Positions 20,786-54,254 of a DNA stretch of 64,000 bases are shown here, in pieces; the first letter of the stretch is position 1, and each line of letters opens with the position of its first letter. The stretch covers positions 109,244,001-109,308,000 of the forward strand of contig OX597820.1 in the NCBI GenBank assembly GCA_951406725.2, read 5' to 3'. The notes under the pieces were generated by a model. It saw nothing but the letters and a program-made list of their open reading frames with translations, made no database searches and was not told the DNA's origin. The position numbers and the translations under genes are program-made. The DNA is from Octopus vulgaris (lineage: Eukaryota).

Positions 20786-20915
20786 AATGGTAAAAATTTA
20801 CAACCGGCTGCACCGAACATTGGGCATACTGACATATTTTACCTGTCAGTCCTGGGAATGGACATTCAATAATCCAGATATGTTGAAGAACCAGCTCTCT
20901 TCAGAAGATAGAAAA
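20786..20915 (+). CDS. FAR1: Fatty acyl-CoA reductase exon (MVKIYNRLHRTLGILTYFTCQSWEWTFNNPDMLKNQLSSEDRK)
   Basis: ctgtag acceptor, gtatgt donor, 130 nt, phase 2/0; YFT..W.W and L..ED.K motifs. Confidence 0.95.
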
Positions 20916-28238: not shown

Positions 28239-29848
28239 TCTCTTATTATAAAAGGCAGATTTTATCTGCCTCCCTTTGGGAGTTATAGAAATCTACAATA
28301 TAGGATTTCTTCAATTACAATTTACCTAGCATTTTTAAGAGTAGAATGCATCGCGTCATGCCAGGTCCAGTTTTTAAAATTTAAACTCCAATTAAGCAAA
28401 ATTTACAGAAAACTCACATTCTGGTGTGTGTGTCAAATGCTTTTCTTAGTCTGGTTTACACCACACGCAAACGCACACACACAGTGTGCAACGAATAAAA
28501 TGAAAGTAAATAGCAACAGAGTGATTTGAGGAAGACTAAACTGAAAGTATTTAAACCACTACTCAAAAAATAAAAAAACACAGCAAACAGAAACAAATAA
28601 ATACATAACCATTTACTCCTCACACAATTTCTTCAATTAGAATTTACCTAAGATTTTTCAAAGTACTCCATTCGCTCATGCCATAATATATTTCTTTCAA
28701 TTTCACCCCCAATTAAGACAAAATTCGAGAAAACTCAATATTTTAACATATCACTCCGAAAGCATTGATGTACATGTGTGCGTGCGTGAGTGTGTGTGTG
28801 TCATTCCTCACACACACGCATACACATACATATACAACTACATACACATACAACTACATACAAACACGTGTGTGTTTGTTATTAGTAAAAAAGGCGCCAA
28901 AACACCAAAACACAACTCACTTATCATTCCAACACATTTGCAAAGACACACGGACGGACAGAAAAGGTAAATTGGTTTTTATTTTACTCTGTATATATTT
29001 TATTATATAATATTATATATAGATATATGTATATATAATTGCAGTATGAAACAGTGTTTATGTATAAACAGACGACACTTATATATAGTTATTATAATAA
29101 GAGATTAATAAATGTATGCATCCGTTTAACCCTTTCGTTACCAAGCCGCCCGAATTTACCTATTCATATTTAAATGAGAATATCAGAGCAAATCTCTTTA
29201 GTACATTCGTGAAAACACGTATTATACTTCGTAAACACTTCAACTACTGTTTTGTACAAAAATCGAAGTGTAATTTTAATTCCGTGAATTATGGGAGATT
29301 TTTTTCCGAAATTTGTTCCTATTGTGTTTTCAAAATTTGTAATTCTGACAAAAAATGGATACGAATTTCATTATATCAAGCAGCGAGTCAGAATTCGAAG
29401 GATTTTCTACTGAAGACCTTCATAAATCTAACTCTATGACTGAAAAAAAAAAGCATCTTTATATAAGAGTGAAGTTGTGTGTCTGTCTCCTACAATTTAG
29501 ATTTGTAACTACTCCCACATTTTGCGGTGCAGTTTAACCAAAAGCGGGTATCTTATAGTCGTGATTCATATCGAGCCCTTCTGGGTATTAGCGTGCGTCT
29601 ACAATGAGTCTACGATTTAAAAAAATTTACCATCATATTTTTCCATTTTAATGCATTTTTTCGCTTTTATATAAGGGAAGTAACTCTCTAAAAATATCTA
29701 CGATGTGTCAACGATTTAAAAAAAAATTTACCTTAATTTTTTTTCAATCTTTAATGCATTTTTTTGCTATTTTTTGGCTTTAACTCTCTAAAAATACTTA
29801 TATAGTTATTTCCCTTACAACCCGAGCAACGCCGGGCGATACTGCTAG
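28239..29848 (+). mobile_element. Composite non-autonomous Helitron-like element containing a piggyBac 5' end
   Basis: A|TC starts at 28239 and 29456; 3' hairpin cccgagcaacgccggg then CTAG|T at 29845-29849. Confidence 0.65.
29130..29455 (+). mobile_element. piggyBac left-end fragment
   Basis: TTAA|ccctttcgttacc; nearly identical to 44512-44890 apart from a deletion near the TIR; no right TIR. Confidence 0.88.
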
Positions 29849-31667: not shown

Positions 31668-34930
<3,263 letters not shown>

Positions 34931-35489
34931 TGTGTATATATATATATATATAGCAAATTTCGGCTGTTCAATTCTGATATTTGCTCCAACTCGGCCAGCC
35001 CCAAGAAAAAAAACTAAGCTGTAAGCATTAGATTTCTTGGTAGAAGACAGGAATGTGAACGCACAAGACGGATGTAAATACAAGAGACGAAAACGAAATT
35101 GAAAACAGTAATGAATAAACAAAAATATATATAACGGTGGTTGTCATACGACTTTAGACCAAATGAGACAGAAACAACAACAACATAGCAGCTGGCGTAG
35201 AAATAATTACCGTTTCGGTAGCGGGGACACATGTTGGTTGAGATACGATGGCCAACAGAATGGTTTAAGAAGCAGCAGGTTGCAGGAGAGAGAGAGAAAG
35301 AGAGACAGAGAGAGAGGGAATCAAAGAGGGTGGAAGGCAGGGGACAGAATCAGTGACCAAGAGAAAAGGAGAAAGAAGGGATTAAGGAGGATGGGAGGAA
35401 GAGGGGAGGAGGATGGGAGGAAGAGGGGGGAAGAATCGGAGGGCGCCAAAAAGTTTAGTGAAGAAGCAATGGCAGGTAGGAAAGACAGT

Positions 35490-36457
<968 letters not shown>

Positions 36458-38625
36458 GAATAAAAAGAATTCCAACCTTGTCTGATTTTCACGTTTTATT
36501 TACAATCTTATAATGATATATTATAAGATAATATATTATAATTGAATAAAATAAAATGAAATAGTAGAATGTTAAATATTCATTCTGATTGAACTAGTAC
36601 TTTCATGCATTGAATTCTGCAATCTTCGGGTTCATGTAGTAGTGTTGACAGTCATGCTTCACAATTTTTGACTGTAGCAAGATGAGTGATTCTGTGCTAT
36701 AAATACAGCTGGGTAGGCTCCAGAGTGCTAGGTTTTGCAAACTGTATTCTGACCAATCAGTGTGTAGTATCACTCAATTACTTAAGCTGATTGGTTGGTT
36801 GAGCTGATTGGTTTAGGCATCACGCTTTGTTGGATAGGTCAAGAGTCCTGTATCTTGACCCTGGCCGAAGCAGCAATTGTTGGGTTGTTTTTAGAAATGT
36901 TGTAAATATCCTTTGTCAGAGATTTTTATATTTTTATATTTCAATTGTCATCATCATCATTGTCAGCACCTTAATTATTGTTGCTAGTGGTGATGGTGGT
37001 GGCAATAGAACTTTTAACCCTAAATAAGATAATTTTCCTGCTATCTTCGTCTTGATCACCTTTAGTATTGTTGTTGTTGTTAGTGGTCATGGTCGTAGCA
37101 GTGGAAGTAATACCTCTAAGTATTATTATTATTGCTTATTTAGCTTGGGTTCGAATTTATCAATAAAATTCTTTTCTCTGATTTTCCTCTCGATTTCACT
37201 TGGGCTGTGTAATTTGTAGAATGGAAATATTATATATATTTTCCGACCACATGTTGCTAGGTGGTTACTCAAAGGTATCTGACGGACCTCTGGGTCTCTA
37301 ATCTGTTGCCGGTGTACACGTGAGCGTTCTAATAGTGCGTTTCCCGTCTGACCTACATATATTTCTTCACAATTTGGGCATTTGATGCAGTAAATTAAAT
37401 TTCTGCTTTTGCAGTTCATATTCGCGTTTGTGAATATTTTCCCGGTTTTTGTGTTTATATATTGACCGGTATGTATGAATTGGCATGTGCCACATCGGCT
37501 ATCATTGCATTTAGATACCGTGAATGTTTGGTCTTTGTTGCTGAGGTCAAATTTTGCCTTTGTTAGTAATGTTTTCAAGTTTTTAGGCTGTCTTTTACTA
37601 AGCACCATAGCTCGATCCTTGATTATGTCTTTTAATTCATTACTTTGGGCAATGATTGGTAGGTTTGCTTTGGCAATGTTGAAGATATTCTGGTGACATG
37701 GGTTGTGTGTCACTATGAATGGTATGACTTGTTCTTGTTTTCCTCTTCCTTGGGTTGTCCTAAGTTGTTGTATAGGTATTTTTATAGCCCGCTGTATGCC
37801 ATTTTCTATAAGTAGAGATGGGTATTTTTGTTTGAGCAAAAATTCTCTTAGTTCTATTAGGCGTTTGTTCCTGATATTTGCATCTTCTACAATAGTACAA
37901 ATTCTTCTGGCTAGGCAGTATGGGATGTTACGTTTTGTATGTGGTGGATGGCACGACTTAAAATTTAGGTATTGATGTGTGTCTGTGTGTTTATAGTATA
38001 TATCTGTGGTGATGGTGGTGTCTTTTTTAATTACCATTATATCCAGGAATGGTAATTTGGTACTACTCATCTCCTTTGTAAATTTGAGAGATGGGTGTAG
38101 GTTGTTCAGGAGGATATTGAACTCTTCCAGAGTATTTAGAGATTCTGTCCAGATTATGAAACAGTCGTCTAGGTATCTCTTCCATGCCTTTTCAATATAC
38201 TTTCTAAATCCAGTGCCATAGTTTACCTCCACCTCTTGGTAGAGTTGTTCTTCTAAGTATCCCATTACAGAGTTGGCGTAAACGGGAGCAAACCTCGTTC
38301 CCATCGCCGTGCCTCTAATTTGGATGTAATTCTTTCCATTGAAGAAGAATGTGTTATTTTCTAGAATAAGTTTGACTGTGTCTAATATAAATGGCACTGT
38401 GAATCTGCTGGGAATCACTTCTCTATGTTTTTCTAACCAGTATTTAATCGCCTTTATTCCTAAATCGTGTGGAATATTGGTGTAGAGGCTTACCACATCA
38501 AAACTTAGCAAAACTGAATTTGTTTCTGTTGTTTTGGGAAGATGGGACAGGAAGTCGATGTCATCCCTGATGAAACTTGGTATGTAAGTACATAGTGGTT
38601 TCAAAACAATGTCAATAAAATTGAC
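36458..38625 (-). mobile_element. Young Penelope-like element (Neptune-like), 5'-truncated, uninterrupted RT + Zn-linker + GIY-YIG
   Basis: About 498 aa open frame: FDVVSLYTNIP, GTAMGTRFAPVYAN, RYLDDCF, PFLDI, CNDSRCGTC, NLIYCIKCPNC..YVGQTG; stop at 37129. Confidence 0.95.
36590..36634 (-). ncRNA. Minimal type-I hammerhead ribozyme motif (U4C core variant)
   Basis: Minus strand: UGAAC CCGAAGA u UGCA gaauucaa UGCA u GAA AG ua CU A GUUCA; perfect 5-bp stem I. Confidence 0.72.
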
Positions 38626-38626
38626 A

Positions 38627-42152
<3,526 letters not shown>

Positions 42153-43502
42153 GTTCATTCACCCGCTCTCCTATGCTTCTTGCTGTTTCCCCTACGTATG
42201 TTACTGTCTTGTTACTGCATCATCCCTCTATACATCTTATACTATAGACTACATTTCTGGCTTTACAGTTTGTTTGTGGGCTAAATCTACATACAGTGCA
42301 ATAGTTATCCATACAGAGGGTTCTACTAAAAGGATAGGTTCTACCAATTATAGATTTGATAGGGTTGCCTGGCTTTTCAACAACCTTAATTCTTAGTTTA
42401 AGTTTATCTAGGGACCTTCTAAAGCCGTACGCCAGTTCACCTCCAGGGGTGGTGTCAACGAACATGACACTCTGGTATTTATGGCTATCATACCAAGAGG
42501 TGGCCTTCCCTATTTTCTTTTTTGTCCTTTCTATAGTGTTCCATGACTTGTTCCTATAGAGTGGGCAAATCCCATTCCTATCATTACATAATATCTTATC
42601 AAATTTCTTCAAGGCTCCTTTGTATACTCTGATCCTTTCTTTATGGCTGTAACCTGAGAACTGCATGCGGTGAATGAAATACTGTATGTGTCTCTTTAAT
42701 TCTGTAGGCTCGCACATGCGTGACACATTTCTCATTATTCTGACGAGGTCTGCCATCAAAATATTGAATTTGGCATTGCCCGCAATGGCTGAGTTCCGGT
42801 GGATCAGGTATTTTGAGGCCATAGGTTTTGCATAGTATGAATGAAGGATTTGGGTTTTATTTTTCACAATTTCTAGCCAAAGTTCAGTGTCTAGTACTGG
42901 TAGTCTATGGTTGGGGTGTTTAGTGGGGTAGTCTATTGTGACCTTAATACTCTGGTGGATGGAGTTAGCTATTTGCTGGATGCTCTCTATAGTATTAGTT
43001 TCTATTACTATATCAACATTACTCTCTTGTGGGGTTGCCTTTACTACTATGTTGATATCATCAACATAGCGAGAGTACATGTTTACGAGTATGGATTTCT
43101 GCAGTAGGCGTTCTTTAAGCCTTCTGTCCCATCATACCATGAAAAGGTTGGCCACATCACCAGCGATACTAACACCGATGGCTGCCCCCTTGTCCTGGGC
43201 ATATATTTTATTATTAAATTTAAATGTGTGGCCTTTTAGGGTAACTCTTATACTAGCTCCTAGTGCATGTGCGATCATTTTCTTTACCTGATGGACATTT
43301 GCGGGGCTCCGTATGGCTCTGGTCCATCCGCGCCATCTTTCTATATGTGTCTTCCTAGCCATAGAAGTAATTGTAGGTGGTCTACCTCTTAAACATCTAC
43401 TGGGGCAGAAACTACTAAGATTATGTTTATCTAAGTATTCATTATTATATGTCAGTCTAAGTAGGAGGCCCAGTTCTTCTGTGTTGACATTACAGAACAA
43501 TG
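42153..43502 (-). mobile_element. Penelope-like internal fragment (third RT family)
   Basis: [63 protein letters not shown]; both ends in TA arrays. Confidence 0.88.
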
Positions 43503-43536
<34 letters not shown>

Positions 43537-43604
43537 GTATATAGCATGGATTCTATTGAATGTATGTAACAATTATGAACTTTTCCATTATACTGTTTAT
43601 TATA

Positions 43605-43653
43605 AATTGTTTTGATAAGGTTCGTTATTTCAAGAACCGAAACATGTAAAATT
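43605..43653 (+). ncRNA. Minimal hammerhead-like motif with compensatory U3:A8 core
   Basis: UUGAUAA GGUUC guuauuucaa GAACC GAA AC au GU A; stem I weak. Confidence 0.6.
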
Positions 43654-43731
43654 AAAATTTATCTAATATAGTGGCGTTTTCAAACTTCTTTTTTACAAAT
43701 ATATACCCACTCGTATACAATCTACTCTTAT

Positions 43732-43780
<49 letters not shown>

Positions 43781-44511
43781 ATTATATAAAATTTGAAAAT
43801 ATATAAATATAAATATATATAAATATATACTTGCAAAGCTAAGTATATATTTATATTTAAGATTTTTAAAGTTTAATTTTTAAATATTTTAATAAGTCGT
43901 ATTGTATAATTTTGTATTTTATATAAATACTGATTGTTATGTAATGACTTAGTTATCGTAGTTTTTCTATATAATTATTAGATTTTAACCCTATGTTTAT
44001 TCGTAAGACTTTTCTTAGCCAAAGGGATATATAGATCGTTAACAGTTATACGAGTTTTTTTAAAGTTAGGTTTCTTGTATATACATGTATTGTTAGCATA
44101 AATTTTAGTCTTTAATAACTATATTTGTTGATAGTTATTTTAAATATTTTATAATTGTTATTATAACTTATATATTGCTTTTTACAATTGATAATTGGTA
44201 GTAGTATTTTTTCCATTGATAAATATATTTGTAGTATTTATTGGATACTATATAACTACGGATTGATTATTTCATTAAGTATTTCATTATTTCATTTTAG
44301 TTCTTAACTATACGGTTTTTGTAAGTTATTAATTAGCCAACGAGATATATGGATCGTTATTTAGTTATAGCGTTCTTTTAAGATAGTTTGCTTGTTTACA
44401 ATTAGCTTTTTCGTCTTTAATCTTTTAATATATTTATAAGTAATAACGAATAATTAATTTATTACGTCTTTATTGTACGTGCATATATATTTATTGATAG
44501 AGATAATTTAA

Positions 44512-45597
44512 CCCTTTCGTTACCAAACTGCCCGAAACTGCCCGAAAAAATTTTGGTTAATGTGACCAAGCCGCCCCAAACCGCCCGAATTTACCTATTC
44601 ATATTTAAATGAGAATATCAGAGTAAATCTCTTTAGTACATTCGTGAAAACACGTATTATACTTCGTAAACAGTTCAACTACAGTTTTGTACAAAAATCG
44701 AAGTGTAATTTTAATTCCGTGAATTATGGGAGATTTTTTTCCGAAATTTGTTCCTATTGTGTTTTCAAAATTTGTAATTCTGACAAAAAATGGATACGAA
44801 TTTCATTATATCAAGCAGCGAGTCAGAATTCGAAGGATTTTCTACTGAAGACCTTCATAAATCTAACTCTATGACTGAAAAAAAAAAGCATGTGGTATTT
44901 GATAATGAATCTGATGTTTCATTTTCTGAAAGTGAAAACAGTGAATCTGAGAGCTCTGACAGCGATAAAGAAAATGAATTGGCACCTGAATGGAGTGAAA
45001 ATTTAAAAACTGTTTCTTTCGGTGATTTTTCTGAAGAAACTGGACCAAGCCACAGACTTTCCCTGAAGAGTAAAGCCTTAAACTATTTCTTTTTACTTTT
45101 TCGAATGAGCCTATTTGAAATCATTACAGCGGAAACGAACCGTTACGCTAAACGTAAACAAAGCGAAAGAAAGGATAGTTTGTTATTTCCCACAACCTTA
45201 AATGAAATTAAGGCCTATTTTGCCATAAATATTATTATGGGTATCAGAAAGTTACCCAGAATAACAAATTCTATCGTAAAATTTTGTTGTATACCCAATT
45301 GAATATTAGCTAATAACCCATTTTCTATAGTGATGTTTGAACAAAATTTTAATAATTTTATATATTGTTGAATTTACCTGTATCTACCTGCAATTAGAGT
45401 CACTTTGTGACAAAAATTACAGTATAGAATTGGTTGAGAACATTTCATTAACTTATCTTCCAAAATTCATGTTAATATATTGATAAATAAAAAAGTTATA
45501 GTTGTTTAATGAAACCAGACTAAATTTATGATTACGTTAGAAATTAATTGAAACACATAAGGGGTGTATTTTGGTCAGAAATATAGTAACGAAAGGG
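44512..45597 (+). mobile_element. Internally deleted piggyBac transposon
   Basis: TTAA|ccctttcgttac ... gtaacgaaaggg|TTAA; ORF 44790-45302 is a PGBD4-like N-terminus (acidic tract, TAETNRYA, EIKAYFAINIIMGIRKLP). Confidence 0.93.
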
Positions 45598-45981
45598 TTA
45601 AGATCTTAATTCTTATATTTATATACATTTATATATATTCATTGATAATTTAATTATTATTCAAATATTATATAATTATTTGACTTGAAATTTAATTTAA
45701 TAATATGAATAGTGATTTTTATTTTTTTTTGCTAAATATTTAGGTAATTAGATATCGACGGTAACTGAGATTAGATTATTTAAATTTTGAATTATATATT
45801 TTATATATTTTGTATATTATATTAATTAATTTATTTCTATGTTTTGGTTTATGTTTTTCACTGTTTGATTTGCCTGATAGTGGTTTTATCTCTAATTTAA
45901 TATATATATTTATACTGTAAAATTAGATTTAATCCTAAATCTAATTTTTCCCTGTAAGTTTGGATTTACTCCTAATAATAT

Positions 45982-51834: not shown

Positions 51835-54207
51835 AAGATTTTCATGGGGGGGGGGGTAAATAAACACACACTATATATTCGTTTTTTATTGTTATCGTTT
51901 CACTTATATCTGTTGCCTGTAACTCTTTCGTCCCACAATTGTGACATCTTCAGCAACTTCTTCATCCTCTTATATACTCTTGTTCTGCCTAGTCCATTCT
52001 GTCCTTCTATGCATGCATTTGTGTCTCTGTCAGTGTGTGTGTGCACACATGTGCACGCACACATATGTGTGTGTATACATGTCCTGTTTTGCATGTGTAC
52101 TTATGTTTATGTATATGGGCTTGCTATATTGTATACTATTTGTATCCATGCTTTTTATATGGTTGTTACTGCTATTGTCATTGTTCTTAGTGGTCATCAT
52201 CATTGTTTGACTGTGGTCGAGACAATGGAATTTACCATGCTACGCCAGACTTCACGGTCCATCATAGCATTACGGAAGTCCTGTTGCTGAATGCCTGTAT
52301 CCCTGGAGATTACATCAGGGTAGGAGAGTGTGCGCCCTCTGGTATTGCGAGTAGATGGCTTCCAGAGGAGAAGTGTAGAAATTGCCTCGTTTTCAGCTCT
52401 ACAACAATATCCAGCAAACTGGACTCTCCTACCTTTCACAAGAAATGACACAGGTGGTAGTTTCCTATATATCTGCATTTTGGTTGGATGACGCTTCCAC
52501 GAGAGATTTTGAGCTCTCATAAGGAGGCGAGTGTAGGTTCCATCCAACTGCCTCTCGAGCTTCTTTGATAACGTTCAGGTTTCTGAGCCATATAGTAGAA
52601 TTGGTTCGACTGTGGCTTTGAAGATTTCAAGTTTGAAGTCTCTACTTAGATTTGATGACCAGATCTTATGCATGTCATTACAGGCTGACCAGGCCATACC
52701 CTTTCTAGTTAGAAGATCTTTTCTAGATGATAATATGTATGACCCAAGATATTTGTAATCAGAAACCATATTTAAGGGCGCATTGTTGTGAGTATGGATG
52801 ATGCAATCACTGTTGGACAGGCACTTGTTTATATATTCAGTCTTGGCCTCATTGAGGTAAAGACCTACACAATTTGAGGCTTGTTCGAGAGATTGTAAAA
52901 GAGACTGGGCATTGGAGAGAGAATCACTGATAAGAGCGATGTCATCAGCAAAGTCAGTGTCTGTCATGTATTCAGCTGGGTGTCTGGAACTTCTTCTAGG
53001 TTTTATTTCAAAGCCCTTGCCAGAAATGGTATCAACTGACATATGTAGCACATAGTCAACGACAATGATGCAGTATTCCGGCTTTGATTGAGAAAGTGGT
53101 ACCAATACTCGGTATGTTGACCCTCCCCTCACGTTTTCTCTTCTGTTGCTGTTGCTGCTGTTCTTGACCCTTATTTTGTTATTTTTCTTGTATCTTTGTG
53201 TGTTTATGCGTCTGTTTATGTTATGCCATCATAGTTGTTGTTGTTGCTCATGTTGTTGTTGCAACCATTTGTGATGTTACTGTAAGTGGGTTTGTGTGTA
53301 TGTATATGGGTTTGCTTACTCTATTGTTTGCATCCATGCCCTTTATTTTTTATTTTTTATTTACTTATTTATCTCTATTTCATCATAAGTTTGTGCATGT
53401 TTGTCTTTTGTGTGTATTACACTGTTTGTATCTCTGTGTTTTTTTCCTCCCTTCTGTCTTAGTTGTCATGTTGTGTGGTGGGAGTGAGTGTTCTTGTTCC
53501 ATTCATGTTTTTTGTTGAGACTCCATCTGTCTATTACTATGTGTGTGCCCTCCATAATCTGTCTAAGTGTCATGTTTGTTCTATGAATTGATTATACCTT
53601 AACCTCTATGTTATTAACTGAGCTTCTATGTTCTACTTGAGCATGTTGGTAGAGCACTGACGAGCTTTTCTCCTCTTTGTGCTCCTCCTTGCTGCATACC
53701 ATCTCCCCAATGTAGTTGTTGTCTTGTTTCTGCACTGTACTTTAGTACACTGTGAGCTGTAAACTACATTCCTAATCTTACAGTTAACCTGTGAGTTCAT
53801 CCTACATATTATACAATTGTTCTCCATACATGGAGACCTATTGAAAAGATAAATTCTACAGGCCAGGGATTTTATGGCCTTTCTGCTACTTTAATCCATA
53901 GATTTACCTTATCTAATGCTTTTCTAAAAAAAAGTATGCCATTTCGCCACCAGGGCTAACATTGATGAACATGACACTCTGGTATTTTTTGTTGTCATAC
54001 CATGAGTTGGCCTTATCTATTTTTTCTGGCCCTTTCTGTACTGTTCCAAGATTTACTAGTGTAGCAAGCAGATCCAATTTGGATCACTCTCTATGATGGC
54101 CTTGTAATTATCCCTGGCTTCTTTGTACACTCTAATTCTGTCCTTTTGGTTGTAGCCAGATAATTGCATGTGGTGGATGAAGTGTTTTATGTGTTTTTCC
54201 AATTCCA
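51835..54207 (-). mobile_element. Degenerate Penelope-like element (family of 42153-43502), interrupted by a LINE
   Basis: KHFIHHMQLSGY, SWYDNKKYQSVMF, CIICRMNSQVNCKIRNVVYS; low-complexity 3' UTR; hammerhead-like motif at 51912-51957. Confidence 0.7.
52195..53075 (-). mobile_element. RTE-group LINE (different family, no PHD insertion), 5'-truncated
   Basis: TDTDFADDIAL, GLYLNEAKTEY, YKYLGSYI, PILLYGSET, RRVQFAGYC; (TGA)n tail. Confidence 0.88.
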
Positions 54208-54254
54208 TTGGGTCACAAAAAAAAAACAACCCACAAAGATATTAAGGTTAGTCA

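Follow-up and report, generated by a model that had tools for sequence, protein, structure and literature searches.

A short island of DNA in an intron of the FAR gene is probably what 5' truncation has left of a Neptune/Nematis-type Penelope-like retrotransposon, namely the pseudo-LTR with its tail, and (TA)n was its probable insertion site. It encodes a hammerhead motif with a U3:A8 pair in the core, and it belongs to a repeat family that appears to share this core throughout. The copy in the FAR intron itself is likely inert, as judged from its sequence variants and predicted folding. The window below is the whole stretch of 64,000 nucleotides that was analyzed, and all positions refer to it. 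The features of the locus are as follows:

42151–43503, − strand: Penelope-like ORF fragment, cut at both ends and head-to-head with the island (451-codon frame)
43503–43543, no strand: (TA)n at the head-to-head junction (repeat search)
43544–43600, + strand: 5' module, repeated head-to-tail in some other copies (contig joints)
43608–43611, + strand: 5' strand of stem I, which pairs with 43649–43652 and is damaged by G43609 (run variants)
43612–43618, + strand: 5' core U3-U4-G5-A6-U7-A8-A9, U3:A8 variant (sequence, and constancy in four of four runs)
43619–43638, + strand: stem II of 5 bp with G10.1–C11.1 and a 10-nt loop (predicted pair probabilities 0.94–0.98)
43639–43648, + strand: G12-A13-A14, palindromic stem III, and the GUA triplet (sequence)
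43649–43705, + strand: 3' portion of the repeat, where many copies stop at 43705 in (TA)n (contigs)
43706–43731, + strand: optional 3' extension of ~26 nt, present in only part of the copies (contigs)
43732–43829, no strand: (TA)n at the 3' end of the island (repeat search), like the ending of other copies and of two related loci, L003 and L009

The hammerhead motif of the island

Sequence inspection places the hammerhead core at 43612–43648 of the + strand (TTGATAA, stem II, GAAAC, AT, and GTA). The strands of stem II, GGTTC at 43619–43623 and GAACC at 43634–43638, form Watson–Crick pairs at all five positions; they are followed by GAAAC (43639–43643), the palindrome ACATGT (43642–43647), and the triplet GTA (43646–43648), with the predicted scission point between 43648 and 43649. 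An earlier note on this DNA had described the motif, its 5-bp stem II, the ACAUGU palindrome, and the (TA)n flanks, all of which are as claimed, and had placed the island sense to a FAR intron of 34 kb, which holds as well: the exons stop at 20915 and restart at ~55030 on the same strand, leaving an intron of ~34 kb. The core fits the pattern YUGANRA...GAAA...NUH with a Watson–Crick 3:8 pair, as in type I hammerheads of Penelope elements, and the G10.1–C11.1 closure of stem II and the short palindromic stem III are likewise of the Penelope type. The note's reading of a compensatory U3:A8 core in such a type I hammerhead with a palindromic stem III is thus supported. The extra nucleotide between A9 and G10.1, usual in minimal hammerheads and not catalytic, is absent. 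Folding predictions give an intermolecular 6-bp duplex of the ACAUGU palindrome at −6.6 kcal/mol, and the predicted minimum-energy fold of the homodimer pairs stem III between the two strands, yet it is not the full active dimer.

With both a strict and a medium descriptor, the island motif is the sole match in the 64-kb window. None of 300 composition-matched shuffles gave a match to the medium descriptor, and the analytic expectation per window is 0.015 for the medium descriptor and 5e-4 for the strict one, falling to 3e-5 once the latter also requires the palindrome. It should be noted that these descriptors were composed after the motif had been seen, and evidence from the family was therefore required. 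A loose descriptor gave 2.4 matches per shuffled window; the weak hammerhead-like motif at 51900–51953 (−), which matches this descriptor only, is inseparable from chance and was not used. Rfam gave no hammerhead model at the gathering cut-off in the whole window or at E ≤ 10 in 43300–44000, folding z-scores were not significant (−0.02 to −1.2) and lend no support by themselves, and the exact motif pattern had 0 matches in metagenome contigs. Units that bear a hammerhead are not arrayed in tandem at the locus, and the window contains no further copy of the island family.

The repeat family in public sequencing runs

Part of the stretch is contained in 20 of 24 listed sequencing runs (nine studies, three organism labels), in several of them with few words. 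To characterize the island across copies, four runs (X1, X4, X10, and X2) were mapped onto it as contigs at 80% likeness. The island is a repeat family in all four, with 767, 354, 58, and 40 contigs; summed depth is not equivalent to copy number, and calling the family abundant rests on the count of distinct contigs. The earlier note had called the island unique, which is accurate for the window but not for the four runs. Of the three findings that it had named as speaking against its reading, two, a family that reads CUGAUGA and a single-copy island, were not encountered.

No alternative letter at 3% or more is listed at 43612 (U3) or 43617 (A8) in any of the four runs, nor in the rest of the 5' core, in both strands of stem II, or in 43639–43647; an unlisted variant is no proof of absence, and all bins were covered in all four runs. 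Since none of the four runs lists a variant at position 3 or 8 at the 3% level, the U3:A8 pair is, on this sequence evidence, the family-wide state and not decay of the FAR-intron copy. Variation is found elsewhere: loop II differs at 43627 (A>T, 70–89% of depth), 43648 shows A>T at 9–15% of depth in three of the four runs, and further variable sites include 43665, 43696, and many upstream positions.

The contigs also reveal how the family is organized. The 5' module is joined head-to-tail in other copies (43600 to 43564 in X2, 43579 to 43544 in X4), and loose contig ends after 43599/43600 match the start of the island. At the other side, loose ends of (TA)n follow 43705 in 20 contigs of X1 and 12 of X4, and other copies run on to ~43731; the family has two 3' ends 26 nt apart. 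We consider the 43706–43731 extension to be likely a Penelope "tail," and the (TA)n at 43732–43829 is likely the insertion target. There are two forms of the family, a short one, represented by the FAR-intron copy, and one that is 10–12 nt longer near 43650, just after stem I. Summed depth peaks in the 3' part, with a shape confounded by this length difference and by short contigs. No joint from the 3' end to the 5' start is listed, among contigs that are short and break at (TA)n, and none of the contigs listed, a set that leaves aside 63 loose ends and 1193 pieces, ties the island family to Penelope coding sequence; one contig runs 130 nt upstream of its island match.

Penelope-like neighbors and the origin of the island

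The island lies 40 bp of (TA)n away from the Penelope-like fragment at 42151–43503, which itself ends in (TA)n on both sides. The fragment contains two in-frame TGA codons and no frameshift, and spans the RT core and thumb, a CX4CX2C linker, and the beginning of the endonuclease. Its RVT_1 match (E 3e-4) is below the curated cut-off; among its 128 relatives, full-length identity reaches 53%, and a 70-aa stretch is 90% identical to a protein of Octopus vulgaris, which makes an octopus the probable host. The linker cysteines C397, C402, and C405 are conserved in the alignment of relatives, and the order of RT, linker, and endonuclease is that of Neptune/Nematis-type elements; a CX2-5CxxC linker is the mark of the Neptune and Nematis clades, and an association of this linker with (TA)n targeting has been described (PMC8557442). 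The earlier note had described the island as stand-alone, with no coding sequence of matching orientation attached. This is literally correct as to orientation, since the fragment is on the opposite strand, and fails as to the island standing alone.

Several features of EN+ Penelope elements described in the literature recur at this locus. An inverted 5'-truncated copy adjoining the 5' end of an element is common (PMC8557442, PMC3846280); pLTRs measure 181–218 bp, head-to-head junctions carry palindromes, and the linker-bearing clades have (TA)n targets (PMC8557442, PMC3846280). Optional tails of 30–40 nt occur (PMC8557442, PMC3846280, PMC11167929), and two start sites of reverse transcription account for the tail (PMC11167929). 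The island resembles these pLTRs in being ~190 bp long, in its optional short 3' extension, in its (TA)n target, and in its head-to-head position with a 5'-truncated ORF and palindromic sequence at the junction; its length, orientation, flanks, and pair of 3' ends thus agree with the published inverted-pLTR layout. Unlike them, the locus has no matching direct pLTR, the extension is ~26 rather than 30–40 nt, and there is no ATG. The geometry suits an inverted pLTR, but (TA)n lies between the halves and the fragment has lost the 3' end with which an inverted repeat would be compared; given this lost 3' end and the 20 TA tracts in the 64-kb window, two separate insertions would fit as well. Whether the stub is the inverted pseudo-LTR of the head-to-head RT fragment is an evenly balanced question, and even if the island originated as a pseudo-LTR, the chance that the neighbor's family provided its parent is about one half.

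Scanning of metagenomes yielded 13 loci of the neighbor's clade. Hammerheads were counted on the eight loci with at least 200 nt after a clear stop; L002, with 3 nt behind its stop, L006, whose end is frameshifted, and L011, L012, and L013, which lack a C-terminus, were left out. A sense type I hammerhead is found 32–106 nt after the stop in five of these eight, in a search that allowed one core mismatch (used by L003 and L005); antisense hammerheads behind the stop occur in none of the eight, and none of 2400 shuffled segments gave a match. The 3:8 pair is C3:G8 in L004, L005, and L009, and U3:A8 in L003 and L008. L003 and L009 run into (TA)n ~45–55 nt after the cleavage site. In all five motifs, position 9 is followed by an extra nucleotide and stem II measures 6 bp; the island shares neither feature. 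In a quick tree of the unnamed relatives only, the two loci with U3:A8 do not form a sister pair, and the neighbor groups with neither; the tree neither connects nor parts the island and the neighbor.

Comparison of the 3' part of the island with the ends of the five relatives revealed no significant similarity (p 0.14–0.97). The five are distant, with 42–47% protein identity to the neighbor, and the missing homology is for this reason weak counter-evidence. A second, more decayed fragment of the neighbor's clade, which covers the ORF end, is found in the window at 53496–54220 (−), and its flanks show no significant similarity to the island either (p 0.28–0.63). One of eight comparisons (36500–37128) gave p 0.015, which is not significant after counting tests. 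Two candidate similarities were rejected: a motif seen by eye downstream of the hammerhead in the island, L003, and L009 is not significant, and an 8-mer that the 5' module has in common with sequence flanking the second relative is present six times in the window, with alignments that are not significant.

Some further observations concern the relatives and the window. In L004, positions 1–60 repeat sequence found after its hammerhead (3290–3441), so that the ORF begins inside the pseudo-LTR, ~50 nt past the cleavage site; L007 has an open frame of 1632 codons (3–4901), about twice the usual length, with a repetitive region rich in Q/P/R/T upstream of the RT. Two other Penelope ORFs in the window have hammerhead-like motifs 500–590 nt after their stops. 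One of these motifs, at 36585–36637 (−), is a decayed hammerhead with a U4>C change in the core, a palindromic stem III, and a 5-bp stem I, 500 nt past the stop of the ORF at 37129–38790 (−), which has RT and GIY-YIG Pfam matches. The other, at 32330–32401 (−), resembles a hammerhead with C3:G8 and has a long stem II that is interrupted; it lies 585 nt past the stop of the Penelope-like ORF at 32986–35143 (−). Near the 53496–54220 (−) fragment lies a LINE fragment (~52200–53110), and the sequences on its two sides are alike (p 0.003). A piggyBac-like transposase remnant (DDE_Tnp_1_7) is located at 44510–45600 (+), a partial copy of it with 98.7% identity precedes it in the intron (29125–29456), and diverged direct repeats (43960–44081 and 44278–44398, 74% over 125 nt) lie just right of the island.

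Taken as a truncated Penelope-like element, the island would have arisen from a full element with the motif a short distance behind the stop codon of its ORF. When a transcript contains two copies in tandem, these would pair through the stem III palindrome (ACAUGU), and cleavage would follow GUA. AT-rich DNA would have been nicked by the endonuclease of the element. Reverse transcription would have begun close to the 3' end at either of two sites, which accounts for copies that end at 43705 or 43731, and would have stopped early to leave a 190-bp stub. At the level of the family, the motif would by analogy work like a Penelope-type dimer hammerhead.

Alternative readings, condition of the FAR-intron copy, and known systems

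It is less probable, though conceivable, that the family is a Penelope-derived non-autonomous mini-element (SINE-like or a retrozyme monomer) of 160–190 nt, which uses Penelope proteins in trans and is unrelated to the RT neighbor. There are hundreds of distinct contigs per run in the larger runs, animal retrozyme units cover the same range of lengths, (TA)n is present on both sides, the 5' module is in tandem in some copies, and there is no link to coding sequence among the contigs listed. The island indeed resembles animal non-LTR retrozymes in being short, AT-rich, non-coding, multi-copy, type I, and Penelope-related, and solo monomers are described for the Penelope-derived ones (PMC7229834; bioRxiv 10.64898/2026.07.22.740005). 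However, as described there, these retrozymes are defined by tandem hammerhead units and circular RNAs, whereas the locus has no tandem of hammerhead units and no 3'-to-5' joint is listed; stem I is short, AU-only, and not of the canonical retrozyme type. The 3'-biased depth and the optional tail suit truncated Penelope ends, and the contig that extends 130 nt upstream of its match also speaks against this reading. Of the two origins offered in the earlier note, a solo pseudo-LTR or a retrozyme-like element, the pseudo-LTR is therefore the best reading, and the retrozyme is not borne out. If the motif had come about fortuitously in AT-rich sequence, or through two independent mutations in a CUGAUGA hammerhead, this would account for the missing Rfam match, the unremarkable z-scores, and the ease with which the loose descriptor matches shuffled windows. 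Such an origin is nevertheless exceedingly improbable, given the 0 of 300 shuffles with the medium descriptor, the four runs, which list neither C at 43612 nor G at 43617 at the 3% level, and a core and stem II that stay constant in these runs while neighboring positions vary.

A third alternative is an active intronic ribozyme that cuts the FAR pre-mRNA, alone or with another family copy, and is possibly retained by the host. The island is sense to the intron, every core position is intact, a distal 7-bp helix (43602–08/43656–62) is possible at a predicted p of 0.2–0.4, and U3:A8 cores have been reported active in vitro (cited in PMC3088659). Against this, the condition of stem I weighs heavily. 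Position 43609 is G in this copy and T in 99% (X1), 78% (X4), 100% (X10), and 70% (X2) of depth, while 43608 is A in 58%, 45%, 0%, and 70% of depth in the same runs. By inspection, stem I has 2 bp here and 3–4 bp in most of the family, as against the 4–5 bp of Penelope-type hammerheads; the earlier note had already called it weak. G43609 also permits a competing helix (43608–43613/43639–43644) with a predicted p of ~0.5, compared with 0.001 for the active stem I, and this helix would bury U3, U4, and G12–A14. The FAR-intron copy is therefore likely inert, or too damaged to cut, because the rare G43609 shortens stem I to 2 bp and the modeled competing helix covers the core. Metazoan minimal Penelope hammerheads have been reported not to cleave in monomeric form and to cleave weakly as dimers (PMC4209133), and one required the protein of its element (PMC11167929). 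With a damaged stem I, a core that is predicted to be sequestered, weak cleavage of published minimal hammerheads, and no second copy in the window, cutting of the FAR pre-mRNA by this copy is unlikely, as is any effect on the FAR gene; no sign of conservation of the locus was obtained. We consider an active ribozyme at this site very improbable, and the note's suggestion that the island could cut the FAR intron is not upheld. It is similarly improbable, if marginally less so, that octopus genomes contain a non-autonomous, (TA)n-targeted mini-retroelement of 160–190 nt with a U3:A8 hammerhead at its center, whose intact sense copies in long introns use their common palindrome to pair in trans and cut host pre-mRNAs.

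The truncated Penelope-like element favored here has close counterparts among known systems. A U3–A8 hammerhead core in Penelope elements was published in 2014 by Cervera and De la Pena (PMC4209133), and natural U3:A8 covariation is reported in PMC3088659; the pair was thus already on record and is no surprise. The island shares with the pLTR hammerheads of metazoan Penelope elements, among them a U3–A8 variant in Schistosoma Cercyon, the type I fold, G10.1–C11.1, a short stem I, a palindromic stem III, and U3–A8. In Schistosoma mansoni, the U3–A8 motif of Cercyon has about 1,300 matches, mostly single and ascribed to truncated elements, with some paired on opposite strands (PMC4209133). Literature listings and passages of the papers cited here contained no description of the island family in octopus; PMC6962438 gives only a count of Rfam hammerheads in squid.

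The island family adds an abundant, apparently unreported octopus family to the class described in 2014. Within a single Penelope clade, that of the relatives of its neighbor, the 3:8 pair switches from one state to the other, with C:G in three and U:A in two of five (ungrouped on the quick tree). If intact copies cut host transcripts, a family of this size could show, by the depletion of sense relative to antisense copies in introns, whether Penelope hammerheads are active in vivo, and if they did so in trans, the family would be expected to be scarce at sense positions of introns or to have a function there.
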